A DNA stretch of 54,655 bases, from positions 1-54,655 of the forward strand of contig CAYUVA010000032.1 in NCBI GenBank assembly GCA_964448115.1. The letters are read 5' to 3'. Every line of letters starts with the position of its first letter. The first letter of the stretch is position 1. Made by a program: the position numbers and the translations under genes. The stretch comes from an uncultured bacterium (GTDB taxonomy: Bacteria; CAYUVA01). This document shows, in pieces, positions 35 to 54,655 of this stretch. The notes under the pieces are model-generated. The model was given only the letters and a program-made list of their open reading frames with translations. It made no database searches and had not been told where the DNA came from.

Positions 35-53
35 ATCAATTCTTCAGAGCTGG
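35..53. repeat. 19-bp repeat ATCAATTCTTCAGAGCTGG, perfect inverted copy at 54606-54624
   Basis: Direct comparison of the two window ends; flanking sequences diverge. Confidence 0.85.
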
Positions 54-69
54 CTGAGAATAATTATTC

Positions 70-4366: not shown

Positions 4367-7210
4367 CTAGTTCTCGCTTTTGGGGGTGTTTGTTGCAGGT
4401 TCCATGATTTCCTTGAGTTGATCCATATAGTCGTTTGCCGCTGATGAGAAGGGATCTATCTTCAACGCCTCCTCGAAGAAGTTCTTTGCAACCATGAGAT
4501 CCCCTTGTTTAACCGCTATGACTCCGAGGTTGATCAATGACCGGATCTCTAGGGGATTGCGCTTTAGATCGAGCTTGAAATTGTGCTTGGCGCGGTCGAG
4601 ATCACCCAAGTTGAAACGACATATCCCGTTATTAAAGTAGATATCCCGTGTGGGGGTTATGGATAGGCTCTTATCGAGGCATTTTGCTGCATAAGAAAAA
4701 TCACCGGCATTCATCGACTTTACGCCGAGATTCATATAAGCGGTCGCTGCCTTGAGAGCATCACCAGAGGTGATGGCTGGCAAAGTATGCTTTGGTGTGA
4801 TTGCCAGGTATTGCCGGTTCTCAATCCAAGTGTCCCTGAATATGCTATGCGGGCTGCTGTATTCAATAATCGGATGATCGTCGCTGTTGATCGATGCCAG
4901 GGACAGATCAAGGTCAGCAAGGGCGAGGGTAAGGCGATTTACTATACCCTCATAATCAACCATCCCTATTCGTTTAAGATCATCTGCTATCTTGTGCTTT
5001 TTTATCCGCTCGGTTATGCGATCGAGGTCTAAGACCGGCAAGGCACCACCTGGTTGGTCGCTTTTCTGCCCTACCAAAAGGATATCCCCTACGCTCCCCT
5101 CGAATATGTAGCAGTGGGGGAATACCTCCTTGAAGGTGCGCAAGATGCAGCGCAGATCCCGCATGCTCAGGTAATAAAGATGCACCCACTGGCAGATGTA
5201 TCCGCCTTGATTCAGTCTTTGGTCAAAGAGCCTATATTGTTCTATTGTGAAAAGATTTGAGACGCCGCTGATCCACGGATTGGAAGGCTCAGATATAATA
5301 ACATCATAAGATGTTTGGGTTGCGTTCAGGTAAGTCCGGGCATCATCGACCACCAGGCGCATTCTACTATCATCGAGCGCGCGGTTGTTTACATGGCTGA
5401 AAAGCCTTGCCGCCTCGACCACGCCGGGGTCTATCTCCGCGCAGGTAAGCTGCTCGATGGGATGTGTAAATGCAGAGCCACAGGTTACCCCGGTGCCTAA
5501 GCCGAGCACGAAAACACTCTTAGGCTGCGGATGGAATAATAAGGGCAACTGAGCTAAAAGCACCTGGGTAACCATGTCCTCGCCATCGGAGCCATCGGTC
5601 TTGCCATTTATTCGCAGGCTGCGCACATCGCCTCGTTGCAAGATGCTAACCACCGAATAGGGGCTTTCATGGTAAAAAATAACCTTGCTGTTCGGGCTGA
5701 AGCCCTCGATCAAGCTATCCGCATAAACATAGGCGCCGCTGCTCATGACCATCTTGTCCCAGGGCGCGACCTTGATATAAAAAAAAGCCAAAAGCAGGGC
5801 AAGCAACAAGCTGGTGAGAACGGTTCGCAATCCCCGCTTCGGGGAGTACTTGATCATCAAAAAGAATCCGTAGAGGGCATAGATGCCAGAGATAAACAGC
5901 AAAGAGCCACGAATGCCAAGCAGCCGGATGCCTACGAATGCACCGAATAATGCCCCTGCTATCGCAGCCACCGTGTTGAGCGAGTAGATGATACCCACCC
6001 CCTTGCCGGTTCGAGACTCGGTATCAACATATATCATTCCGACCAGAGGAAAGGCTGCCCCCATCAACAAGGTCGCCGGAAGCATGATCAAGATGCACAG
6101 GAGAAGTTCGATTACCAGGATAACACCAAAGGAGCCGGCAAACAAACCATAAAGCTCAATGAATAGAAGCGGTAATCTCCCCAGCATGAGAACCGAGAAC
6201 AATACAGCCATGCCGCACATCAAGTTGATCGTACCTAGAACGACCATCGGGTTATTGCGTGGCAATGCCCAATCTATGCGCATCCGGGCTAATACCAGGC
6301 TTCCCAAGCCGATGCCTAGAAGGAAAGTTACTAACATCAAGGTAATCGCATAGACCGTTGAGCCGATCACCAGGTGCAATCCCTTTGTCCAGATCACCTC
6401 CAGGTAAAAGGATGCAAACCCACTTAGTATAAAAGCTATCAAAGCCAATCTACGAGCGCTCTTATCCAATCCGAGATCAATGGGATCAATCTCTGGCATA
6501 TCAGCCTTCTCTTGCATCAAGCCATGACTTTTTTGGCTGGAGAATGATAACAAGATTATGGCAGCGATAATCACATTAACAATCGCTGTAGCCAACAAAG
6601 CCCCTATCATGCCCCAAAGATAGATAAGCAAAAGCCCGGTAAGCGCGGTGCCGGTTACGGCTCCCACAGTATTTATGCCATACAGCCTTCCCAGCTTCTC
6701 CTTGAGCATCTCTTTGCGCCTTGCCAGGTATTTGCAAAGAAGCGGTAAAGTAGCCCCCATGCAGGTGGTAGGAGGTAGCAGAACCAATACAGCAACTATG
6801 AATTTTAGGGCTATTGAGCTGGCTGAACCGCTATTATCATAAGAAGCCAGCGAGAAATAGACCTGATCCAGCAGATCGAGCAACAGCAATGATAAGAGGG
6901 CATATAAGCCAATGATAAGCTCCAGCAAGCCATATAGCCTTACCAACCTTGTTTCATTCCCTAGCTTATCAGCCAATATGCCAGCCAGGTAGCTTCCCAG
7001 CGCCAAGCCAGCCATAAAGGCGGATAAAACCGCACTGACACCATATATGGTGGTGCCCAGTATCAAGCCGAGCTTGCGCATCCAGATCATCTCGTAGCTT
7101 AAGCCACAAGCGCCGGAGAAAAAAAATGCAGCCATGAGCAAGGGCTCTTGATAAATGCCCTGCTTTGGGCAGACTGTCTGCGCCTTAGACCAAACTGGTT
7201 TATTATTCAA
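4367..7210 (-). CDS. Multi-TM membrane protein fused to a spermidine synthase-like (SAM-binding) domain and C-terminal TPRs
   Basis: Two repeated TM blocks (FFFSGACGLSYEMIW / FILSGFASFYLEVIW), LGLGTGVT, EIDP, DDAR, DVIISEPSNPW, TPR-like tail; exact start uncertain. Confidence 0.8.
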   Translation of the reverse strand: MNNKPVWSKAQTVCPKQGIYQEPLLMAAFFFSGACGLSYEMIWMRKLGLILGTTIYGVSAVLSAFMAGLALGSYLAGILADKLGNETRLVRLYGLLELIIGLYALLSLLLLDLLDQVYFSLASYDNSGSASSIALKFIVAVLVLLPPTTCMGATLPLLCKYLARRKEMLKEKLGRLYGINTVGAVTGTALTGLLLIYLWGMIGALLATAIVNVIIAAIILLSFSSQKSHGLMQEKADMPEIDPIDLGLDKSARRLALIAFILSGFASFYLEVIWTKGLHLVIGSTVYAITLMLVTFLLGIGLGSLVLARMRIDWALPRNNPMVVLGTINLMCGMAVLFSVLMLGRLPLLFIELYGLFAGSFGVILVIELLLCILIMLPATLLMGAAFPLVGMIYVDTESRTGKGVGIIYSLNTVAAIAGALFGAFVGIRLLGIRGSLLFISGIYALYGFFLMIKYSPKRGLRTVLTSLLLALLLAFFYIKVAPWDKMVMSSGAYVYADSLIEGFSPNSKVIFYHESPYSVVSILQRGDVRSLRINGKTDGSDGEDMVTQVLLAQLPLLFHPQPKSVFVLGLGTGVTCGSAFTHPIEQLTCAEIDPGVVEAARLFSHVNNRALDDSRMRLVVDDARTYLNATQTSYDVIISEPSNPWISGVSNLFTIEQYRLFDQRLNQGGYICQWVHLYYLSMRDLRCILRTFKEVFPHCYIFEGSVGDILLVGQKSDQPGGALPVLDLDRITERIKKHKIADDLKRIGMVDYEGIVNRLTLALADLDLSLASINSDDHPIIEYSSPHSIFRDTWIENRQYLAITPKHTLPAITSGDALKAATAYMNLGVKSMNAGDFSYAAKCLDKSLSITPTRDIYFNNGICRFNLGDLDRAKHNFKLDLKRNPLEIRSLINLGVIAVKQGDLMVAKNFFEEALKIDPFSSAANDYMDQLKEIMEPATNTPKSEN

Positions 7211-7238
7211 TGCAACCCCAATGTGGCTATGTGATGAT

Positions 7239-8357
7239 CTATGGTAGTTCCCGGCTTATAGAGTCGAGGGCATTCAATAGAAGCTCGGGATACTGTTTTA
7301 TCTTGCGTGTAAATACCTTGGTTTGCGCCTTGGCTGCTACATCGAAAAGGTAAATGGTAACTATATACATATCCCCTATACTACCTATATTGCCGGTGAT
7401 TATATAATCGACATTGAGCCTTCTTCCCAGCTCGGTCAAACAATCGCTGGAGGTGCAGCTCGACTGGTAACTCTCCTGTAGCTCCTCCAGCGCTTTTATG
7501 TAATCCCCTTGGACAACGACCTGCAGGTTGCCCGCCTTGAAGATCGAGGTACGAAGGTACTTGGAGAGATCCAGGACCTCCATGAGGTTCAAGGCTGATG
7601 AGGAAAGATCCAGCACTATCACCCTGGGAAGCTCTTGGTTAGGCTTTTTAGTGGCTGATTCGGACTCACCTGGCTGCGGTGTTGGAATTTCTTCGAGAAC
7701 CAACTTATCCTTCTCGATAAGTTCCCTTGCCTCATCGGTGCCAATCCCTTGTTCTATATAAGCTCTTAAGGGTTTTGCCAGGGGGCTGTCCGGGGCTAAC
7801 TCGATGAATCTTTTATAGTGAAAGACGGCGTTATCTCTATCGCGGCGATACTTTTCGTAGATCTCGCCGGCGTTGTAATGTGCAACTTTATTATTCGGGT
7901 CGGCAATCAGCACCGCCCGATACTGTGCCAGTGCTTTCTCGTAGTCCCCGCGCTTCATGTAGCAGTACGCCAGGTTGTTCCGGCAGGGCAGATCGTCTGG
8001 AGAACGCATGAGCACATCCTCCAACTGCCTTTGTGCGTTCTGATACAATCCACGCCTTATGAACGCCTCGGCAAGCTTCTTGCGGTAGTCATTGTTCTCC
8101 GGGTCGTGATATACTGCCTGTTGCAGGTATTTCAGCGCTTGGGTCGTATTATTCATCTCCAGGTAGGCGGTTCCGACCATGTAATTTGCAGGAGCATCTT
8201 CGGGATTGTTTGCCGCATATCTCTCAAGGCACTTTACGGTCTTCTCCCAGTCCCTTTGTTGGTAGGCAGCGGTGCCCTGTTTGTAGTGAGCGGCACAGCC
8301 TAAGAGTAAAGTAGTCAACAAAACCAGGAGTGATGCCTTTAAGATCAGTTCTCTCAT
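7239..8357 (-). CDS. TPR-repeat lipoprotein with C-terminal CsgG/TolB-N-like domain
   Basis: Lipobox LLLGC, about five TPR units, C-terminal CTSSDCLTELGRRLNVDYIITGNIG; ATG at 8357 preferred over TTG at 8366. Confidence 0.72.
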   Translation of the reverse strand: MRELILKASLLVLLTTLLLGCAAHYKQGTAAYQQRDWEKTVKCLERYAANNPEDAPANYMVGTAYLEMNNTTQALKYLQQAVYHDPENNDYRKKLAEAFIRRGLYQNAQRQLEDVLMRSPDDLPCRNNLAYCYMKRGDYEKALAQYRAVLIADPNNKVAHYNAGEIYEKYRRDRDNAVFHYKRFIELAPDSPLAKPLRAYIEQGIGTDEARELIEKDKLVLEEIPTPQPGESESATKKPNQELPRVIVLDLSSSALNLMEVLDLSKYLRTSIFKAGNLQVVVQGDYIKALEELQESYQSSCTSSDCLTELGRRLNVDYIITGNIGSIGDMYIVTIYLFDVAAKAQTKVFTRKIKQYPELLLNALDSISRELP

Positions 8358-8412
8358 AGCCTGCAATATATTAGTCCAAGCTCAGGAGAAGTCAACACGC
8401 CTGCCAGCCAAA

Positions 8413-9654
8413 TCAGACCTTGAGCAGACGCTTGATTCGGTTCATTCCACGACGAACCATCCTGAAGATCCTCTGCGCCAGGATGGTATTATTAAAGGCT
8501 TCGATGCCGCTATCGAGCAAGTACTCCCTCAATCCCTCCCGGATCCGTTGATTCTCGATAATCTCGTTGGCGGGGCATCTCTGGCAGAATCCGGGCAACT
8601 TCCCCGATATTAGCGCGCTTCTTATACCAGTCAGGTAATCCCCCAGCCATACCTGGTCGAGCGTCTTATCCCTTATATTCTCCTGGCGGAATTCATCATA
8701 GCTGGTGCAGCAAGGTCCTACAAAGCCATCAGCATTTATCTGTATATGATGAAACGGCTCGTAGCATGGGATGCGCAAAAATGGATGATTATCCGCTTCC
8801 TGTCGCGTGCGTCTGCTCATGAACTCATCTAGATCGGATTGAAGCTCGACCAGTTCCCTTTGTTGTTGATAATCCTTGAGGTTGGTCTTTAGACCAAGCG
8901 AATCGGCGAGCTTCTCATACTCGCTTATACGCTGTTGAAACTCTTTATTTGCCTTGGCATCCATTATCAGATCCATGGCGAATCGATTGGCTCGAAGCGG
9001 ATTTATATTGAGTTCGCTGGCACCGGTCTTCGCTGCCATGAGGATCATCTCATCGATCCGGTCATAATTAGCCTTGCTGAGTACCATCCAGATCTGGGTC
9101 TCCGGTAGCGAGGTGCCGGCAGCTTGCTTGGCTTCCTTGAAAAGCTGCAATCCCTTTATCGCCAAGTCAAAAGCGCCCTCGACTCCCCGAAGCTGGTCGC
9201 TGCTATTAGCATCTGGAGCATCGATGGAGAACTGAACCCGCTCCCAGCCGACCCTGGTCAAATCAGAAGCCATCCTCTCATCGAAAAGCGTTCCATTGGT
9301 GATGATCGAGCCGTTCATGCCAAGCTGGCAGATCTTTAGCATCATGGCATGGGTGAGCTTCTTGCGCACCAGAGGCTCGCCACCACCGATTATCACCCAG
9401 TACCTGACGCCGTGCTCTGCTCCCTCATCGATGAGCCTGAGCCAGCGTTCATCGCTAAGCTCATCAGGGGGGGGGAGATCCATTATCTCTCGCTCTCTCA
9501 GGTAACAAAAGCGACAATTAAGATTGCACTTGATAGTCGGGTGGATCGATATCGAGTAGCAGGGGGCAGTCGCCCCTTCACTCCATCGCAACAGCCTTTT
9601 TATGCGCTCATCCAAGATACCTTGTCCTGTTTCTTCAACTTCTCTGCTGGGCAA
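8413..9654 (-). CDS. Radical SAM protein with SPASM/Twitch domain
   Basis: CNLNCRFC, GGGEPL, FSIDA, C-terminal CYEP...GPCC...CQRC; start overlaps the mfd 3' end. Confidence 0.85.
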   Translation of the reverse strand: MPSREVEETGQGILDERIKRLLRWSEGATAPCYSISIHPTIKCNLNCRFCYLREREIMDLPPPDELSDERWLRLIDEGAEHGVRYWVIIGGGEPLVRKKLTHAMMLKICQLGMNGSIITNGTLFDERMASDLTRVGWERVQFSIDAPDANSSDQLRGVEGAFDLAIKGLQLFKEAKQAAGTSLPETQIWMVLSKANYDRIDEMILMAAKTGASELNINPLRANRFAMDLIMDAKANKEFQQRISEYEKLADSLGLKTNLKDYQQQRELVELQSDLDEFMSRRTRQEADNHPFLRIPCYEPFHHIQINADGFVGPCCTSYDEFRQENIRDKTLDQVWLGDYLTGIRSALISGKLPGFCQRCPANEIIENQRIREGLREYLLDSGIEAFNNTILAQRIFRMVRRGMNRIKRLLKV

Positions 9655-47464: not shown

Positions 47465-48232
47465 TCATTTTATCCCGATAGCCTCTGCCTCTTCTTTGCG
47501 CAGCGTCAAGTAATATCCCTTGACCTTTACCTTTATCGGATCTCCAAAGGGAGCTGTTTGATCCATCTTAATTATAACATCGGGCAATATGCCCATATCG
47601 ATAAGTCTTTGGCGTATGGATCCTTTTGCATGAATGGCGAATACTCTTCCCTCTTCACCGGGCTTTAAGTCAAGCAGTGTTCTTTTATATTGTCTCCCCA
47701 GCTTCCTTCTCCACCGATGCCTTCCATCTCGCAGAGTACAGGGGTCTTCTTCAATGCAGACATGGTTGAAGGAGACATCCTCGTGGCTATGCGCAGCCTG
47801 GAACCATTTTGTAAACCTATTGAGCAGAGTAAGCTCGCCCCTGGGGCAAGACCTAATGAACTCAGTGAAACTAACCATGCGATCAAGGGTCTCAAGGCTC
47901 AAGTGGTGTTCTATAGCACAGGCATCCTCCTCGGCTATTTCACCGGGAACTAGAAGTATATCAGTCAAGAAGCGGGTGAGAAACTCATGCCTCAGCACCA
48001 TCCTTCTTGCCTGCTGTTCACCCTCAGCAGTAAACTCGATATATTCTCTAGCCTTGTAGTTGATAAGCCCTTCCTCGGCAAGCCGTTTCATAGCACCGTT
48101 CACGCTTGCCATACTTACGCCCTTCTCTTTGGCTATATCCTTGACTCGGGCGACCTTCTTTTCAGCTATTAGCCTGAAGATGATCTCCAGATAATCCCAG
48201 AGGCTTTCGGTTATCGAACTTGAGGCTTCCAT
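47465..48232 (-). CDS. DtxR/MntR-family metal-dependent repressor with C-terminal FeoA domain
   Basis: DYLE.I, ARVKDIA, RHE.L..FL, ACAIEHH; C-terminal RLIDMGI.P...APFGDP; SD AAGGAG before ATG at 48232. Confidence 0.88.
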   Translation of the reverse strand: MEASSSITESLWDYLEIIFRLIAEKKVARVKDIAKEKGVSMASVNGAMKRLAEEGLINYKAREYIEFTAEGEQQARRMVLRHEFLTRFLTDILLVPGEIAEEDACAIEHHLSLETLDRMVSFTEFIRSCPRGELTLLNRFTKWFQAAHSHEDVSFNHVCIEEDPCTLRDGRHRWRRKLGRQYKRTLLDLKPGEEGRVFAIHAKGSIRQRLIDMGILPDVIIKMDQTAPFGDPIKVKVKGYYLTLRKEEAEAIGIK

Positions 48233-48245
48233 GTTTCTCTCCTTG

Positions 48246-48286
48246 TTAGGCGAGACTAATTTAGTACGCATAATCTATTTTGTCAA
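48246..48286 (-). promoter_or_regulatory. Sigma-70 promoter (TTGACA-17-TAAATT) overlapped by a TTAG-N6-CTAA palindrome, candidate DtxR-family operator
   Basis: -35 at 48286-48281 and -10 at 48263-48258 on the minus strand; palindrome TTAGGCGAGACTAA at 48246-48259. Confidence 0.55.
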
Positions 48287-48347
48287 GGGGAATTATTTGC
48301 AAAAGTTGTCCTATGTTGATAATAGCTTAGTGTTTTAATCTAAAACA

Positions 48348-48923
48348 ATGGTCAAAAAAGAAATACTCCTATTGATCTTCCTCGCTGTTGCACTAGGTCT
48401 TGCTATGGCTATTTTCTTGCCCCAGACCATCCAATACACGGCAGCTCCCCAAATGAGGAGAGAAATGAATAGACAATTATCCTCAAGCGATGCAGAGCCC
48501 CAAAAACCCCATGCTGATGTCATGGAGATGATCGAGCAAAACAGGGACAATGCGGAGATGCTAATCCAGATCGGCAATATCCTTTTTGATCGCCATAAAT
48601 ATGAATCTGCCAGGATAGCCTACCAGGCTGCGCTTGAACATAAACCGAATGATCCTGATCTTCTTACTGACCTGGGCATCTGTTATCGAAACTTGGGGGA
48701 TCCTGAAAAAGGGGTGGAGATGATGAGGCTAGCTGCACAAGCCGATCCCAGACACGCATTGTCGCGACTGAACCTGGGCATCATACTTCAAGGGGATTTG
48801 AATGACAGTATCGGCGCTTTGGCTTACTACAAGGAGTTTCTCGCCATTGCACCGCAGCACTCGCACGCAGAGATGGTCAGACAGCGCATCGCCGAGATAG
48901 AAAGAATTATCGAAGGGAAATAG
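48348..48923 (+). CDS. Membrane-anchored TPR protein
   Basis: N-terminal hydrophobic helix followed by three TPRs (LTDLGICYR, LNLGII). Confidence 0.78.
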   Translation: MVKKEILLLIFLAVALGLAMAIFLPQTIQYTAAPQMRREMNRQLSSSDAEPQKPHADVMEMIEQNRDNAEMLIQIGNILFDRHKYESARIAYQAALEHKPNDPDLLTDLGICYRNLGDPEKGVEMMRLAAQADPRHALSRLNLGIILQGDLNDSIGALAYYKEFLAIAPQHSHAEMVRQRIAEIERIIEGK

Positions 48924-48972
48924 TTCTTTCATGAAATGAAGGGTATTAATCTAAGGACAAAAGAAATTACTT

Positions 48973-49902
48973 ATGAATTGGTGGTTTCGAGGGCTTGGTG
49001 TAGTCCTTTTTGTAATTATTCTGCTCAAACTCGATCTTACAGAGCTGCTTGACCTATACAGGTTGCTTGATATTGAGATCATCTCTTTCACTTTTTTGTT
49101 GGTCTTACTGGTCATCGCCTTGAAGGCTTGGCGATGGGCTTATCTCCTTGAGTTGCAGGGGATTAAGCTAGATTATATGACAGCCTTGCTCATCTATCTT
49201 GATGCCATCTATGTGGGGATAATTACACCGGGCAGGATCGGTGAGGCGGTCAAGGCTATCTACCTGAAGGAATCTAAGCAGGTTAGCTATCACAAAGGTT
49301 TTGTGAGCATTATATACGACCGAGGCTGGGACTTATTGAGCTTGTTCTTTTGCCTTTGGCTGGGGAGCATACTTATTGCACCAGTAGTCTCAGGTCTCTT
49401 GGCTATTGGCTCAAGCGCGCTTATGATGCCGATTCTTGCTATCCTTTTAGTCCCTAGATTACGCAGAGGATTTTTGAAAATCGTAATTAGACGCACTCCT
49501 TTCTCCGCCAAGCTGAGGTTAGAGGACCTGGTAGGTGAGATGTCGAAGATATGGTCGATAAAGCAGCTTATCCCTTTCGGATTGAGCCTGCTGGCATACC
49601 TGCTCACCTTCTGTATCGCTTATGTGCTACAGGCTATGCTTGGATACGATTTAGATTTTATTTTCGTCGCTGCGATTATCGCCCTTACCAATTTCTTCTC
49701 GCTGATACCGGTAACCATCTCGGGCATCGGACTGCGCGAGGCAGCATTAATCTGGTTCCTTGGCTACAAGGCGATCTCTGCGGAGAAGGCAGTCGCCTTG
49801 TCCATGCTAGTCTTTTTGACCTGCTATGTCGTGGTCTGGCTACTGGGAGCGATTGCCTGGCAGATCAAGCCGATTACCATGCTAAAAAAATCTGCTGAAT
49901 AA
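48973..49902 (+). CDS. Lysylphosphatidylglycerol synthase TM-domain (UPF0104/flippase-like) protein
   Basis: KAWRW, TPGRIGE.VKA.YL, DR..D, PVTISGIGLRE. Confidence 0.82.
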   Translation: MNWWFRGLGVVLFVIILLKLDLTELLDLYRLLDIEIISFTFLLVLLVIALKAWRWAYLLELQGIKLDYMTALLIYLDAIYVGIITPGRIGEAVKAIYLKESKQVSYHKGFVSIIYDRGWDLLSLFFCLWLGSILIAPVVSGLLAIGSSALMMPILAILLVPRLRRGFLKIVIRRTPFSAKLRLEDLVGEMSKIWSIKQLIPFGLSLLAYLLTFCIAYVLQAMLGYDLDFIFVAAIIALTNFFSLIPVTISGIGLREAALIWFLGYKAISAEKAVALSMLVFLTCYVVVWLLGAIAWQIKPITMLKKSAE

Positions 49903-49934: not shown

Positions 49935-49967
49935 GTAGGGGCAATTCAATTCTTTGAATTGCCCCTA
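49935..49967. repeat. GTAG-type REP-like palindrome / bidirectional hairpin between convergent genes
   Basis: 14-bp perfect stem TAGGGGCAATTCAA / TTGAATTGCCCCTA with a 4-nt loop, starting with GTAG. Confidence 0.6.
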
Positions 49968-50013: not shown

Positions 50014-51408
50014 CTACATGCTTTCAAGCTCAAAGGGATCGGTCGTGTAGGGTGTGATCCTCTCCATTACAATGCGCAGGTTGGTCTCTCCCATGCGCTT
50101 GATAACAGCGATGATCCTGCCATCCCGCTTCTCGAAGCTAGCCGGATAGTTGATATCCACTATGGTATAGCCTGCGGGGATGGCGACCTCGATGCGGCTG
50201 AATGTAGTCGTGCGCTCGAAGACCAGTTGATTAAGCTCGTTCAGATAATATGAGCCTTCGTGATAGTAGATCATATCCAGCCAATAACGATCAAGCTCAC
50301 GGCGAAAATCTGGCTGATCGCTGCGCACCATTACCGTAGGATATTCGTTGTTTGAGAACTCCGCTGTAAGCTCCAACTCCTCCATGGTGTCAAAGGCATC
50401 GAATGCCCGAACCTTGGTATCTGGAGTGGAGGCTCTGACTGCGAAATTGGACACCGGCCACATGGTGGTTACATAGAACAGCCCCAGCTCATCGGATAGA
50501 TCATAATGAACCAGCGGCATCTGCTCCACTAGATCCTGCTCCACCTTAGACATCACTGCACGCAGATGATCCAGGTTTGCCTTACTGTTAAACTCTACCC
50601 CGATATCGTGAGCCATCTCATCCAGATAACCGGGGATAGGTGCAGCAGAGGCTAGCGCAACTGATTCTGCTGATAAGCGAAGATCGCCCTCTTCAAGAGC
50701 CTTGAAGCCGATCTTATCGACCACCATGTCTCCCTCGCCGATGCCGATTCCACGGCAGTCCTGTTGATTATCGCTGAAGATATTGCTGTCCATGTAAGGC
50801 TCAGCTCCTGCGCCAGCCATGACCCCAAACCTGTTGCCGCTAAAGATATTATTCACTATCGATGGACCGGTTGGCCACCAAGTCCAGACGCCGGTCTCAT
50901 TGTTCATAAGATTATTGTGAGCGATCAAGGGCATGGAGCTATTGCAGGCGATTGCACCCAGTCCGCCGTTATTCTTGAAGATATTGTTCAGAATAACCGC
51001 GCCGGATCCGCTGACATGAACACCGATGTGACGGTTATCCTCGATAATGTTGTTGAAGACGCCAGTCAAGGAGTGCCTGGTGTCAACACCGATAACACCG
51101 TTTCTTATTGTAAAGCCGATAATCATAGCGTTATTGGCGCCGGTAACAACCGTTCCCTCGCCGTTACCATCTAGTATGGTCGCTCCAGCACCCTCACCCA
51201 TCAAGATAACGCCCTCAGCGAGCTTGATGTGCTCATGATAGATGCCGGCTGGCACGCGCACAATCTCCCCAGGATAGGCGGCATCGATCGCCTTTTGAAT
51301 GGAGAATACCTCTTGAGTGATAGCCTGCTGCCCCGCGCCAGCCAGGCAGAAAAGGCTCATTAACACTGCAATGGTTAAAGTCGAGATGGTTGTTGATCTC
51401 ATTGTCAT
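50014..51408 (-). CDS. Secreted right-handed parallel beta-helix protein (NosD/pectate lyase-like) with unknown C-terminal domain
   Basis: Signal peptide, SIQKAIDAA.PG..V.V.AG.Y.E, repeated NN.I..N motifs; SD GAGGAGG. Confidence 0.75.
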   Translation of the reverse strand: MTMRSTTISTLTIAVLMSLFCLAGAGQQAITQEVFSIQKAIDAAYPGEIVRVPAGIYHEHIKLAEGVILMGEGAGATILDGNGEGTVVTGANNAMIIGFTIRNGVIGVDTRHSLTGVFNNIIEDNRHIGVHVSGSGAVILNNIFKNNGGLGAIACNSSMPLIAHNNLMNNETGVWTWWPTGPSIVNNIFSGNRFGVMAGAGAEPYMDSNIFSDNQQDCRGIGIGEGDMVVDKIGFKALEEGDLRLSAESVALASAAPIPGYLDEMAHDIGVEFNSKANLDHLRAVMSKVEQDLVEQMPLVHYDLSDELGLFYVTTMWPVSNFAVRASTPDTKVRAFDAFDTMEELELTAEFSNNEYPTVMVRSDQPDFRRELDRYWLDMIYYHEGSYYLNELNQLVFERTTTFSRIEVAIPAGYTIVDINYPASFEKRDGRIIAVIKRMGETNLRIVMERITPYTTDPFELESM

Positions 51409-51451: not shown

Positions 51452-51480
51452 AATATAAGACCTAATCGATCTTATGTCAA
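51452..51480 (-). promoter_or_regulatory. Sigma-70 promoter TTGACA-17-TATATT for the beta-helix gene
   Basis: Perfect -35, 17-nt spacer and near-consensus -10 in the 77-bp gap after the E1 gene. Confidence 0.5.
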
Positions 51481-51485
51481 GTCCT

Positions 51486-52658
51486 TCATGTTAAAATACT
51501 CATCTCCTCGATATCTCCGCTTAGCTCGAAGTGATAGAATCTCTTGTCAGCGATCCTGGCTGTGTAGATATCCAATAGCGGTAAACCGACATCGCCCAGG
51601 CTTGTTTCCAACCCACCTTCGCTACCATCCAGATTATTGATCAGCACTATGTCCTTAACCTTGCCGCAGCTTGAGCAGGTTATCGATAGATCATCGAAAT
51701 GCTTCATAGAACGCATGGGAAGCTCGGTTGTACCGCAATTCGGGCAGTTAAGCTCATAGACGATCTCATGGTTAAGCTCCAAGATCGCCTTTCTACCCAG
51801 CTTTTTCTTCCCGATGCGAACAAGATCGCCAAGAGTCAGGTCTTTTGATTTTAGTGGTAACTCATCGATTTCATCCCAGGATTCATGGCTGAGGCAGTCC
51901 GGCTTGATGCTGTAATCAACCAGGTAGCTTTGGAAGTTCAGACCATTGATGAAGTAGCCACTTCCATTAAGTGCATGTAAACCCTTGGGATCATGGATTA
52001 TCTTTATTGCCTCTTGTACTTGCAGACCGCCAACTATTGAGCTTATGGTCGGAGTAGTCGGTACTGCTGTATCAGGGAGCCTTTGTTTTAACAACTGGCA
52101 GGATCTGCGCTCTTTGATCGCCTCGTAGTCCTCGTCGGTAAGTGTGCACTCATAGCATGGATACCTAGGTGGTATGAAACCTCTAACTACGCCCTCGAAG
52201 ATGCTGATCCCTCCATCCACCCAAGGCGTTTGCACCTTGTAACAGCACCTATTGATAAACAGCCTCGCCTCTCGATTATCAAGCGCACCGATAACCACAT
52301 CCATGCGTCTTATGACTCCAAGACCGATCTCGTACAGCACATTGCCATCAATGGCTTGGATGCTGATATCATTATTAAGCTCGGTAGCTCTTTGCGCAGC
52401 GACATGCGCCTTTGACTTGCCGACATCTTGTTCTCTAAACAGCACTGAGCGGGTAAGGTTGGTAGCCTCAACCTTGTCGAAGTCTATCACCAGGATTCTT
52501 CCTGCGCCCAGCAAAGCCAGATTCTTGAGTATCTCGTTGCCCAGCGCTCCGGCTCCCACGACCAGAAACCGTGCATTGATTATTTTATCCTGATTCCACC
52601 AGGAAATTATGCGAAGGCGGGAGTACTTATCTGCTAAAATCCTCTTAGGAGAACTCAT
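51486..52658 (-). CDS. E1-like ubiquitin/Ubl-activating enzyme (ThiF/MoeB/E1 superfamily) with extended C-terminus
   Basis: YSR arginine finger, VVGAGALG, D.D.VE.TNL.R, LDNREAR, CYEC followed by RRSC (candidate catalytic Cys), additional CPNC/CSSC. Confidence 0.88.
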   Translation of the reverse strand: MSSPKRILADKYSRLRIISWWNQDKIINARFLVVGAGALGNEILKNLALLGAGRILVIDFDKVEATNLTRSVLFREQDVGKSKAHVAAQRATELNNDISIQAIDGNVLYEIGLGVIRRMDVVIGALDNREARLFINRCCYKVQTPWVDGGISIFEGVVRGFIPPRYPCYECTLTDEDYEAIKERRSCQLLKQRLPDTAVPTTPTISSIVGGLQVQEAIKIIHDPKGLHALNGSGYFINGLNFQSYLVDYSIKPDCLSHESWDEIDELPLKSKDLTLGDLVRIGKKKLGRKAILELNHEIVYELNCPNCGTTELPMRSMKHFDDLSITCSSCGKVKDIVLINNLDGSEGGLETSLGDVGLPLLDIYTARIADKRFYHFELSGDIEEMSILT

Positions 52659-53188
52659 ATATACTTCTTGCGGTAGCTATCCTTTTTCTTCCAGAAGATA
52701 TGATATATGTACCATCTCTTTTCAGTGATATCTCTTTTGTCAAGTGGGAACATCTTCTTGTTATGCTTTGCCCAGTTTGCCGCCTCTATGTTAGCAGGAC
52801 TTTCCAGGTTATAGTTCTTATATTGCAATACCTCCCCTAAGCGAAGGATATAGTTAGCCATATCCTCCGAGGCTCTGAAGGCTGAGCTGAAGGCGCAGAA
52901 CTTGCTGCTGTTGGGATAGATGTTCGGGTGATAATGAGGGCTTAGGATCGTGCAGGTAGGTCCAACATCGAAATAATTATATCCTAAGTGGATAACACAG
53001 ATAACCTTCTTTACCTCGATGAAGTTGCCGTCCTTAAGCCCTATACCGTTGACCTTGTAGATTACAAGGTACTCATCCGGGGGATCTTTCTTGTTTGGAT
53101 ATACCTTTATCCAACGGGTCTTGCGAAAGGTCTTCTTTATCTGTTGATATTCGGCTCTCAGCCTTCTTAATAAGATTGCCGATGTCAT
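52655..53188 (-). CDS. E2-like ubiquitin-conjugating (UBC fold) protein
   Basis: RRL..E first helix, YHPNIY followed by Cys (HPNIYPNSSKFC), NLESPANIEAA. Confidence 0.82.
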   Translation of the reverse strand: MTSAILLRRLRAEYQQIKKTFRKTRWIKVYPNKKDPPDEYLVIYKVNGIGLKDGNFIEVKKVICVIHLGYNYFDVGPTCTILSPHYHPNIYPNSSKFCAFSSAFRASEDMANYILRLGEVLQYKNYNLESPANIEAANWAKHNKKMFPLDKRDITEKRWYIYHIFWKKKDSYRKKYI

Positions 53189-53190
53189 TG

Positions 53191-54552
53191 TTACTTATTC
53201 TGCGTATATAAGCGTTCCTTTGGCGGAAGGTAAATCTCACTTCCAATCCTTATTTTATTTGGATCCTCCAGACCGTTGTACTCAGCAACTAGTTTTGTGA
53301 ACTCCCAGGTCGAATTGCCATAATAATTCAGGCAGATCTCGGTGAGTGTATCCCCCGGCGCGATTATTATCACCATCTCGTCTCCCTTTGGATAAAATCG
53401 AGTGGCTTCGGGGATAGCAGTAGGAGTAGGCTGGAGTTCCTCTTCTTTTTTTTTAGTCTCGTCAAGAAGTGTTTGGATCATAACCTGCTGGATATTAATC
53501 AGTTTTTGTATCTCCTTCAAGTCATTTATTCCAGGCATTTGTTTCAGGCGCTCCAGGTAAAGCTGTTGTGCTTGGGTAGTAGTTTCCTTTACCTGGCGTA
53601 CTGCCTGATCCACCTCTGTGTTCCTCTTATTCTGTTGCTGTATGTTATAGCGCTGGATCATTAACAAAGCGATTAGATTGATCAGCAGGAATACGAAAAT
53701 TATCAAAGCTACCTTGATGCTATTCTTGAGCAGCTTTTTACCTTTTATATGATAATACTGTTTCTCCTCTTGGAGCAACATCTGCTTGAAGAACTGCTTG
53801 AACTCACGATCCAGGGTGCTGGTGATAGTTGTAATAATCTCATTTCGCACCTCAGCCCTGGTTTCGTATTCAGCGATAAGCTCGTAATTCTTGTTCTCCT
53901 CGATGAACTTGGAGGTATCCAGTCCATAAAGGCTGCTCTTGCGCAGTCCGCAAATATAGACTTGAGTAACCGACTTAACATTGCCATTTCTCTGGTTAAA
54001 TACGCCTACCTCGTTGCGGACAGGATCGACCACGATTGCGACCTGCCATTCCCTGGGAAAGAAATTGCTCTGGATGAATTGATCCGCCTTGGATAGAAAA
54101 ACTCCGAAGTTTGGATGCGAGTGATACCAGCCGAGGATCTGTAGCTCTGGATAGGTCGTATCCCTCTTGTGGTGGATGTGTTCAAGGGCATCGGTAGTGA
54201 ACTTGAAGCTGGCTACACCCTCCTCGCCTTTGCGGGCTGGGATAGTCTTCATTACCTCGATGAACCGCTTACCGCTCTCTTCGTCCTTGCGCAAGAAGCC
54301 TAGAAGAATGCCGCCGACCTCCTGACTCCTGTGCAGCTTTGTATGGTCGTAGATCTCTGAGTAAGCGGTGGTGCTTAGAAAGACCTTGAAATCCTCAGAG
54401 TCAACCCCCACACCTGGAACACCTAGTGGTGCAGCCCATAGGTGGTCGTTCTCAACTGGTTCGAGCTGAACGGTAGCCTCGGTCTCCAGGCTCTTGATCA
54501 GCTTGAAGGTGCACGCTGGAGCCTCTTGTTTTTCATCTTCCATTTCTTCCAT
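53191..54552 (-). CDS. JAB/MPN+ metallo-isopeptidase fused to a TM helix, coiled coil and LysM domain
   Basis: EVGGILLG and GWYHSHPNFGVFLSKAD (HxHx7Sx2D); TM at about aa 281-299; Q/E/K-rich coil; PGDTL..I...YYG...N.L.DPN.I..G..I.LP. Confidence 0.88.
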   Translation of the reverse strand: MEEMEDEKQEAPACTFKLIKSLETEATVQLEPVENDHLWAAPLGVPGVGVDSEDFKVFLSTTAYSEIYDHTKLHRSQEVGGILLGFLRKDEESGKRFIEVMKTIPARKGEEGVASFKFTTDALEHIHHKRDTTYPELQILGWYHSHPNFGVFLSKADQFIQSNFFPREWQVAIVVDPVRNEVGVFNQRNGNVKSVTQVYICGLRKSSLYGLDTSKFIEENKNYELIAEYETRAEVRNEIITTITSTLDREFKQFFKQMLLQEEKQYYHIKGKKLLKNSIKVALIIFVFLLINLIALLMIQRYNIQQQNKRNTEVDQAVRQVKETTTQAQQLYLERLKQMPGINDLKEIQKLINIQQVMIQTLLDETKKKEEELQPTPTAIPEATRFYPKGDEMVIIIAPGDTLTEICLNYYGNSTWEFTKLVAEYNGLEDPNKIRIGSEIYLPPKERLYTQNK

Positions 54553-54605
54553 CGTATGATATTATATAGGAAAACAAATCAAATTGCCATAGTTAATCAA
54601 GAGTT

Positions 54606-54624
54606 CCAGCTCTGAAGAATTGAT
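54606..54624. repeat. 19-bp repeat CCAGCTCTGAAGAATTGAT, inverted copy of 35-53
   Basis: Direct comparison of the two window ends. Confidence 0.85.
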
Positions 54625-54655
54625 CTGAATTGAAATAGCGAATCCATAGGATGAT

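Follow-up and report, generated by a model that had tools for sequence, protein, structure and literature searches.

The 54,655-nt contig CAYUVA010000032.1 of an uncultured bacterium (assembly GCA_964448115.1), referred to here in its full length as the window, carries close to one end a minus-strand gene for a 453-residue protein in which an Rpn11-like JAB domain, a transmembrane helix (TM), a helical stalk and a LysM domain follow one another in that order, as an earlier note made from the sequence had described, though without naming the strand. We propose, at a rough probability of 60%, that this protein acts as the deconjugating isopeptidase (a deubiquitinase, DUB) of a system composed of a YukD-type ubiquitin-like protein (Ubl), a ThiF-type E1, a UBC-type E2, a RING protein and the JAB protein, and that it is bitopic, with the LysM domain as its tether to the cell wall. 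Judged by its sequence, the gene set is a new member of a predicted bacterial Ubl system. The domains themselves are observed directly in the single open reading frame (ORF) listed for this part of the window and in a structure model built with AlphaFold2 (AF2) on 81 aligned relatives, whose confidence is given as pLDDT:

53191..54552, minus strand: JAB-TM-stalk-LysM gene, 453 aa (ORF; Pfam JAB E=9.8e-13, LysM E=5.3e-4; AF2 mean pLDDT 80.9)
53944..54477, minus strand: Rpn11-like MPN+ (JAB/JAMM) domain, residues 26-203 (AF2 pLDDT mostly >90; Foldseek; PSMD14 sequence match)
54082..54123, minus strand: JAMM zinc/catalytic motif H144-S-H146...S154...D157 (conservation), with E78 upstream at 54319-54321
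53758..53916, minus strand: helical linker, predicted cytoplasmic, residues 213-265 (AF2 helix, pLDDT 46-77)
53656..53712, minus strand: single TM helix, residues 281-299, VALIIFVFLLINLIALLMI (Kyte-Doolittle mean 3.23 over 19 residues; inside AF2 helix 273-338)
53434..53655, minus strand: helical stalk rich in Gln, Glu and Lys, predicted extracytoplasmic, residues 300-373 (AF2 helices to 338 and 345-373)
53398..53433, minus strand: Pro/Thr linker LQPTPTAIPEAT, approximately residues 374-385 (sequence; AF2 pLDDT <50 at 374-379, modelled as disordered)
53197..53397, minus strand: LysM domain, residues 386-452 (Pfam 20.3 bits; profile against the Protein Data Bank (PDB) 6.7e-20; AF2 fold)

The JAB domain carries the Rpn11-type JAMM signature that the earlier note had recognised, GWYHSHPNFGVFLSKAD at residues 141-157, and the Pfam JAB model (PF01398) matches residues 56-162 with 48.4 bits against a cut-off of 22.5, the Prok-JAB model matching the same protein at 6.9e-7. 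A pattern scan with one genome per species returned at least 563 relatives, the best 80 loci of which were analysed by ORF calling and hidden Markov models (HMMs). The residues E78, H144, H146, S154 and D157 are unchanged in 81 of 81 aligned relatives, and the JAMM residues likewise in 64 of 64 relatives of the LysM type. Among solved structures, the sequence is closest to PSMD14/Rpn11 (E=3.5e-9) and the Caldiarchaeum Rpn11 homologue (2.5e-6), followed by CSN5, AMSH-LP and BRCC36. In the AF2 model, pLDDT exceeds 90 across most of residues 51-200, which form the MPN fold, and Foldseek places this model with Rpn11 (5u4p_B, E=2.7e-11), CSN5, AMSH and BRCC36 at a probability of 1.00, the best structural match being the Caldiarchaeum Rpn11 homologue 6fnn_A (target-normalised TM-score 0.80, 27% identity). 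These observations suggest that the JAB is an MPN+ domain with its catalytic residues intact and that it is presumably active. The MPN+ fold and the JAMM motif are shared with eukaryotic Rpn11/PSMD14 and with the homologue from Caldiarchaeum subterraneum (PDB 6fnn, 6fjv; Nat Commun 2018, PMC6043591). Unlike the Rpn11-type enzymes, which are soluble or are subunits of the proteasome lid, the present protein is membrane-anchored with a predicted extracytoplasmic LysM domain, and no link to a proteasome is evident.

The gene linkage is likewise observed directly. The JAB gene is followed on the same strand by an E2 gene after a gap of 2 nt, and this in turn by an E1 gene with an overlap of 4 nt, which bears out the functional tie of the JAB to E1 and E2 that the earlier note had drawn:

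52655..53188, minus strand: E2 (UBC-like), 177 aa, starting 2 nt past the JAB stop (UQ_con 26.1 bits; HPN and C98)
51486..52658, minus strand: E1 (ThiF-type adenylation domain plus zinc ribbon), 390 aa, with a 4-nt overlap with E2 (ThiF E=3.2e-55)

The E2 scores slightly below the cut-off of 27 bits of the Pfam UQ_con model, and its H87-P88-N89 and C98 are unchanged in all 62 aligned E2s. The E1 has one ThiF domain by Pfam, and its conserved cysteines comprise C187 (71 of 74 sequences), a CxxC at 168/171, and C305/C308/C328; relatives of it, typically at E ~1e-100, are found in 73 of the 80 related loci. A single JAB and a single E2 of the family are encoded in the genome, which has in addition a second, weaker E1-like match on contig C8 (7.2e-17).

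The Ubl is encoded elsewhere in the genome. An HMM made from the small Ubls of related loci and run over this genome, which is 94% complete, returned exactly one Ubl, on contig C29 (E=4.3e-28; next best match 0.5), directly beside a Cys-rich ORF:

8232-8498 of locus L087 (contig C29, within ~48231-49020), minus strand: Ubl gene, 88 aa (HMM, Pfam YukD)
8536-9021 of locus L087 (contig C29), minus strand: RING-like Cys-rich ORF, 161 aa, just upstream of the Ubl gene

The Ubl is of the YukD type by Pfam (E=4.8e-10), and a genome search with the ubiquitin model PF00240 returned sub-threshold matches only, one of them this same protein. It ends in ...EITAG, and because the AG directly precedes the stop codon, the Ubl needs no maturation. 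The 161-residue protein shows the pattern CPxC...C..C...H...CW...C....C, which aligns to 30 Prok-RING_1 domains with a probability of 87% (hhalign, E=3.8e-6); the Atlas leads for it are weak (0.85-0.86, below 0.9). Both ORFs sit among others that look like housekeeping genes, as named by eye.

The position of the protein in the membrane was predicted from several lines of evidence. Only residues 281-299 exceed the Kyte-Doolittle threshold, and they map exactly to the single TM at about 53656-53712 given by the earlier note, whose other observations on the layout also held: the basic patch KGKKLLK stands just ahead of the TM, the N-terminus lacks a hydrophobic segment in the Kyte-Doolittle scan, as expected of a protein without signal peptide, and the linker described as PTPT is the Pro/Thr stretch between stalk and LysM. 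The TM is flanked by five Lys or Arg residues (K+R) on its N side and three on its C side, and is preceded by an acidic N-terminal region of 280 residues. A charge bias is observed in the LysM subfamily, where, with refined helix boundaries, K+R is richer on the JAB side in 40 of 63 proteins, equal in 11 and poorer in 12 (means of 3.41 on the JAB side vs 2.16 on the far side); a hydrophobic stretch at the N-terminus occurs in only 1 of 64 LysM-type relatives. Tail anchoring is seen in relatives L014, L069, L070 and L081, tail-anchored forms having just 2-7 residues past the TM. No hydrophobic segment was seen by eye in the E1, E2 and Ubl, for which no export-signal scan was made. Finally, the genome contains genes for penicillin-binding proteins and Omp85 proteins, and the host is therefore a diderm that has both a wall and a periplasm; 40 comparison genomes included none closer to it than the same domain, and this uncultured bacterium thus seems to lack a near relative among them. 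From the charge bias of the LysM subfamily, the lack of signal peptides, the tail-anchored relatives and the presence of a wall and a periplasm in the host, we infer that an N-in/C-out topology is likely, and the JAB would most likely face the cytoplasm.

Past the JAB, the AF2 model consists of helices at 213-265, at 273-338, which holds the hydrophobic segment, and at 345-373. The Gln/Glu/Lys coil of the earlier note thus stands as a helical stalk of that composition, and its reading as a coiled coil is no more than a guess: the heptad (3.5-residue hydrophobic) periodicity of the stalk is marginal and not significant, the shuffles reaching the observed power at fractions of 0.062, 0.068 and 0.123, and the linker helix 213-265 gives no heptad signal. 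A homodimer prediction with two full-length copies and the alignment scored 0.01 against a mark of 0.42 and is uninformative either way. One or more TMs come after the JAB in 58 of the 80 genome loci and in 65 of 80 metagenome loci, which suggests that membrane anchoring is the norm of the family. The region past the TM is highly variable among relatives and includes LysM domains (7 of 81), tail-anchored forms and low-complexity tails.

The C-terminus was accepted as LysM despite a Pfam score below the cut-off, in agreement with the earlier note. A profile made from it and six orthologous C-termini matched the solved LysM domain of LytE at E=6.7e-20 and 33 PDB chains at E<=0.001; the same position in the six relatives is a clear LysM by Pfam (28.7-46.0 bits); and AF2 gives a beta-alpha-alpha-beta unit at a pLDDT of about 90 (strands 386-389 and 392-396, helices 403-411 and 416-425, strand 439-442). 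Weak Pfam matches to LYK LysM models occur among the relatives. The NCBIfam YneA model (NF010723) matches residues 393-443 at E=1.3e-5, its 25 bits being far under the model's own cut-off of 60. YneA, the cell-division suppressor of Bacillus subtilis, is a small protein with a TM and LysM layout, which the 87-position model fits. The present protein resembles YneA as a single-pass membrane protein with its N-terminus inside, by prediction, that ends in an extracellular LysM; YneA differs in having no enzymatic cytoplasmic domain, and the match covers the LysM part only.

The recurrence of this architecture is a matter of observation. In the genome set, 7 of 81 JABs carry a LysM at E<=0.01, the present one included; six of the 80 loci exceed the Pfam LysM cut-off, each of them with an E1 or E2 nearby in its locus, and they belong to Armatimonadota, Ignavibacteriota and Bacillota or, in the case of L028, have no phylum given. 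A LysM stands behind the TM in 19 of the 80 metagenome JAB loci. An E1 or E2 gene shares the contig in 14 of these 19, and for contigs of 5 kb or longer the figure is 12 of 14. The co-occurrence of the architecture with E1/E2 that the earlier note had anticipated is therefore found in both sets. HMMER over 1.84 billion cluster representatives gave 5,292 relatives at E<=0.001, and of the 150 best, a list enriched by the LysM of the query itself, 60 show the order JAMM-TM-LysM with our own LysM HMM. A JAMM motif together with a LysM match is present in 64 of the 150, and Pfam, run on those 64, confirms the LysM in 53. By these searches JAB-TM-LysM is a recurrent subfamily, common in metagenomes. 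Three of the 64 additionally carry a BON domain, giving a BON and LysM ectodomain with the domain pair of Kbp/YgaU, and in one of the 64 a YukD Ubl domain is fused ahead of the JAB.

The family at large shows the same set of partners. E1 or E2 is found in 76 of the 80 genome loci, E1 in 73, a Ubl ending in ...TAG in 69 and E2 in 67; a RING-type Cys/His motif is present in 44, and E1, E2, Ubl and RING occur together in 39. Neither E1 nor E2 is present in four loci: two from Methanoperedens, whose JABs are short, a contig of 1,960 nt and L014. Further partner proteins are Prok-RING_1 (PF14446) proteins with TM helices, multi-TM proteins with FHA, and proteins with vWA or trypsin-like domains, and a frequent gene order is Ubl-E1-JAB-(FHA-TM)-(RING-TM)n-E2. 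Burroughs, Iyer and Aravind reportedly predicted such YukD-Ubl/E1/E2/Prok-RING_1/JAB neighbourhoods by comparative genomics (Mol Biosyst, 2011), in a study that we take to be the source of PF14446; the present system is presumably of the neighbourhood type predicted there. It shares with those neighbourhoods a YukD Ubl ending in Gly, a single-domain ThiF E1 with a zinc ribbon, an E2 of the HPN...Cys type and an Rpn11-like JAB. It differs from them in that it is split in two loci, JAB-E2-E1 and RING-like plus Ubl, in that its RING-like protein has neither a TM nor a Pfam match, in that its JAB bears a LysM ectodomain, and in that an FHA-TM or vWA partner was not found in the genome at its 94% completeness.

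Several variations were seen among the relatives. In the Chloroflexia locus L006, a YukD-like Ubl (residues 5-81) and a UBC E2 (residues 157-224) are joined in one ORF (6575-7420, plus strand), which recalls BubAB, and in the sister loci L009, L018, L020 and L022 a free 88-residue Ubl gene lies beside the corresponding E2 ORF. Two or three adjoining JAB ORFs are present in 27 of the 80 loci (L007, L012, L021, L023, L026-L028, L030, L035 and others), and at the LysM loci L026, L028 and L084 the JAB ORF that bears the LysM is immediately succeeded by another JAB ORF, of about 245 aa. A pairing of MPN+ with MPN- among neighbouring JABs was considered and rejected, as the JAMM motif is intact in every one of them and some of the pairs consist of overlapping frames, possibly artefacts of ORF calling. 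The Candidatus Methanoperedens loci L008 and L032, whose JABs of about 190 aa have no TM and are among the best matches, contain no E1, E2 or Ubl in the loci as fetched.

Beyond the topology, we infer Ubl specificity, peptidoglycan binding and an anchoring role, and arrange them into the following proposed sequence. The protein would be a bitopic inner-membrane protein with its N-terminus inside, its zinc-dependent JAB and the helical linker lying in the cytoplasm, and the stalk of about 75 residues and the Pro/Thr linker would let the LysM reach the periplasmic peptidoglycan and bind there. The E1 would adenylate the ready-made 88-residue Ubl (...ITAG), which would then pass as a thioester to the E2 and be conjugated, possibly with the help of the RING-like protein encoded beside it. 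The JAB would strip the tag again, and would do so only at the inner face of the membrane, because it is the only membrane-bound part found in the genome. The LysM would fix the position of the enzyme with respect to the wall or concentrate it there, for instance at points with accessible glycan strands, and would not be an allosteric sensor; we read it as a tether or localiser because the family has conserved the anchor but not the region past the TM.

A number of observations weigh against this proposal. The Pfam LysM match (PF01476, residues 396-443) stands just under its cut-off of 20.9 bits, and the profile of the C-terminus also matches Kbp and phage baseplate proteins. As LysM domains exist in cytoplasmic or phage-baseplate settings, peptidoglycan binding is not guaranteed. 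The appeal of the earlier note to the positive-inside rule, sound within the LysM subfamily, fails as an argument for the family at large, where K+R around the TM shows no clear bias (more on the N side in 19, equal in 14, more on the C side in 16; n=49); even for the subfamily, the significance of the bias (Wilcoxon p=2.4e-6) is overstated, the sequences being related. The Ubl lies on another contig than JAB-E2-E1, to which family membership alone connects it. The 161-residue ORF is a candidate E3 and no more, its RING assignment being weak: it has no Pfam match and no TM, a word-based homologue search returned only the protein itself, and its AF2 model, built with no alignment, is unusable (pLDDT 55.7, below 50 in the zinc-finger part). 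No Prok-RING_1 (PF14446) in this genome exceeds the cut-off, the best scoring 18.4 bits. With the proteins of relatives as queries, TM-RING, multi-TM FHA and vWA partners gave only generic shared-domain matches in this 94% complete genome, which does not prove their absence; a candidate FHA partner on contig C10 was rejected as a soluble 3xFHA-TPR protein in an unrelated neighbourhood. In the literature searched, which did not cover the operon tables in the Bil and Bub supplements, we found no experimental study of the YukD-Ubl/E1/E2/RING/JAB family, and searches for JAB with LysM and transmembrane and for YukD with JAB and RING returned nothing on the JAB-TM-LysM architecture.

The alternative that survives best is the one put forward in the earlier note, that of a receptor-like DUB, in which the LysM senses the state of the peptidoglycan (damage, septation or phage penetration) and, through the TM and the helices and probably a change of oligomer, switches the isopeptidase and with it net Ubl conjugation. 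We consider it unlikely. The layout does mirror that of single-pass receptors, with a ligand-binding domain outside and an enzyme inside, and AF2 places long helices on both sides of the TM. Plant LysM receptor kinases of the CERK1/LYK type have the LysM outside, the enzyme inside and one TM, and the eukaryotic membrane-anchored DUBs USP19 and USP30 are examples of DUBs restricted to a membrane surface. The likeness to both is a functional analogy: the present protein is of type II and so of the opposite orientation, its enzyme is of another class, and homology is confined to the LysM. The LysM form is also stable and recurrent, not accidental, and BON and LysM ectodomains occur together in the three relatives mentioned above. 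On a tree of the JAB domain, the LysM label is clustered (5 changes vs a shuffled mean of 6.8; 5 of 500 shuffles as low), a result to be read with the poor resolution of this quick tree and the long branch of the query, by which a single origin is neither shown nor excluded. Against sensing stand the lack of conservation past the TM, where membrane anchoring is what the family has kept and LysM is one of several alternatives beside tail anchors and low-complexity tails, and the lack of significant heptad periodicity in the stalk. A stricter form, a trans-envelope receptor in which LysM binding of particular peptidoglycan structures or fragments (from septal, damaged or phage-breached wall) changes the clustering or conformation of the protein and switches the isopeptidase, so that the Ubl state reports on the wall, appears more doubtful still; if true, it would mean a principle of signalling that bacteria are not known to use.

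Similarly doubtful is a role in anti-phage defence, in which the system would tag a phage protein as Bil does and the tethered JAB would limit self-damage or sit at the site of phage entry. The characterised bacterial E1/E2/JAB systems, CBASS type II and Bil, are defence systems according to PMC11601596 and the Chambers preprint, and Aravind and colleagues (PMC3417536) proposed that such mobile operons act in conflicts. In addition, the gene lies about 50 nt from a multi-copy repeat, and PADLOC reports a JAB model at 1.4e-9 and an E1-E2 model at 9.9e-16. These PADLOC matches are weak and limited to the generic JAB and adenylation domains, the E2 matching no PADLOC model. As neighbours the JAB gene has, within the window, a gene for a secreted beta-helix protein and others for housekeeping functions or metal uptake, and the neighbours of the Ubl look like housekeeping genes by eye. 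The relatives on the JAB tree mostly group by phylum (with Chloroflexota, Acidobacteriota and Planctomycetota clades), which fits long residence better than island hopping. A defence role is possible, with no support from gene context.

Comparison with the known systems leads away from each of them as a direct counterpart. Bil is described as an operon of Ubl, E1, E2 and JAB with a tandem-domain E1, and Bub (6E/DUF6527) as having a Ubl fused to the E2 and a JAB (or E2) fused to the E1, together with the serine protease DUF6527 and a serine-based E2, its type I including a JAB (PMC11601596 and the Chambers preprint). The present system is like Bil and type I Bub in combining a Ubl, an E1, an E2 and a JAB peptidase. 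Bil was rejected on the single ThiF domain of the 390-residue E1 and on the PADLOC BilD model, which covers residues 28-141 only (5.1e-9); Bub was rejected on the separate genes for JAB, E2 and E1, the invariant Cys98 of the E2 and the lack of a DUF6527 match among the four operon proteins; and CBASS type II (Cap2/Cap3), in which a fused E2-E1 (Cap2) goes together with a CD-NTase and an effector, was rejected on the unfused E1 and E2 and on the PADLOC E1-E2 models, which match the adenylation part only, no CD-NTase search having been made.

Less probable again is that the JAB is mainly a processing peptidase, which would mature Ubl precursors or split Ubl-E2 fusions in the manner of BubCD and not deconjugate. 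BubCD is reported to cleave BubAB (PMC11601596), some relatives' Ubls extend past the AG (...ITAGGGVCLG, ...ITAGRGSAR), and the Chloroflexia relative described above has a single frame for both YukD and UQ_con. The only Ubl of the present genome ends in ...EITAG directly before the stop and the E2 is a separate 177-residue gene, so there is nothing to process; with no trimming required of the Ubl, it is unlikely that the role of the JAB here is purely one of maturation. An inverted topology with a periplasmic JAB and a cytoplasmic LysM, or a hydrophobic segment that does not span the membrane, is very improbable: the lack of K+R bias in the wider family and cytoplasmic LysM proteins such as Kbp would allow it, and against it stand the missing signal peptide and the long acidic region before the TM, the strong hydrophobicity of the segment, the N-in charge bias of the LysM subfamily with its single N-terminal hydrophobic stretch among 64, and the E1, E2 and Ubl, seen by eye to be without hydrophobic segments.

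The preferred reading, that of a wall-tethered deconjugating isopeptidase, places the protein among operons that, in the nature of their parts (an HPN-Cys E2, an Rpn11-type DUB and RING E3s), appear to be the bacterial Ubl systems closest to the eukaryotic and Caldiarchaeum cascades. The link to the membrane across the family, in the TMs of the JABs as well as in those of the RING and FHA partners, hints at the tagging of membrane or envelope proteins, and the LysM subfamily would add to this a physical link to the cell wall. The genome offers what looks like a minimal five-gene version in which only the DUB is membrane-bound, and therefore a compact set for reconstitution. As one more instance of an architecture common in metagenomes, it adds little beyond this compact, split gene set; it is the family that merits experiments.

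The surroundings of the operon comprise the following further features:

54561..54590, minus strand: promoter-like site (ATGGCA, 18 nt, TATAAT), 10 of 12 matches, ending 8 nt before the JAB ATG
51480..51452, minus strand: second, better promoter-like site, 11 of 12 matches, ahead of the beta-helix gene
50014-51408, minus strand: beta-helix (NosD-like) protein, 464 aa, after E1, with an N-terminus like a signal peptide by eye
49967..49936: terminator-like hairpin at the beta-helix gene
54605..54655, no strand assigned: 51-nt repeat with which the contig closes, the same sequence as contig C52 bases 5-55

The short distance between the first promoter-like site and the JAB start codon suggests a leaderless or near-leaderless mRNA. 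Promoter-like sites are weak evidence in this region, where 12 were found against 7.3 +/- 2.2 in shuffles; with this reservation, JAB-E2-E1 looks like a three-gene unit because the next gene has its own, better site. None of the 80 related genome loci contains a counterpart of that gene, and its beta-helix protein is probably unrelated to the Ubl system.

The window, which is a complete contig, terminates 103 nt upstream of the JAB start codon, and because it ends in the 51-nt repeat, the upstream neighbour of the JAB gene is out of view. An inner part of the repeat, 20 nt long, occurs near five contig ends, including the start of the window (35-58). Inner repeat words of 14-19 nt are placed at a distance of 34-41 nt from the window start and from an end of contigs C15 and C62, and are also found inside seven other contigs. 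The repeat probably represents one end of a multi-copy element that is missing from the assembly, for instance an insertion sequence (IS) or a miniature inverted-repeat transposable element (MITE).

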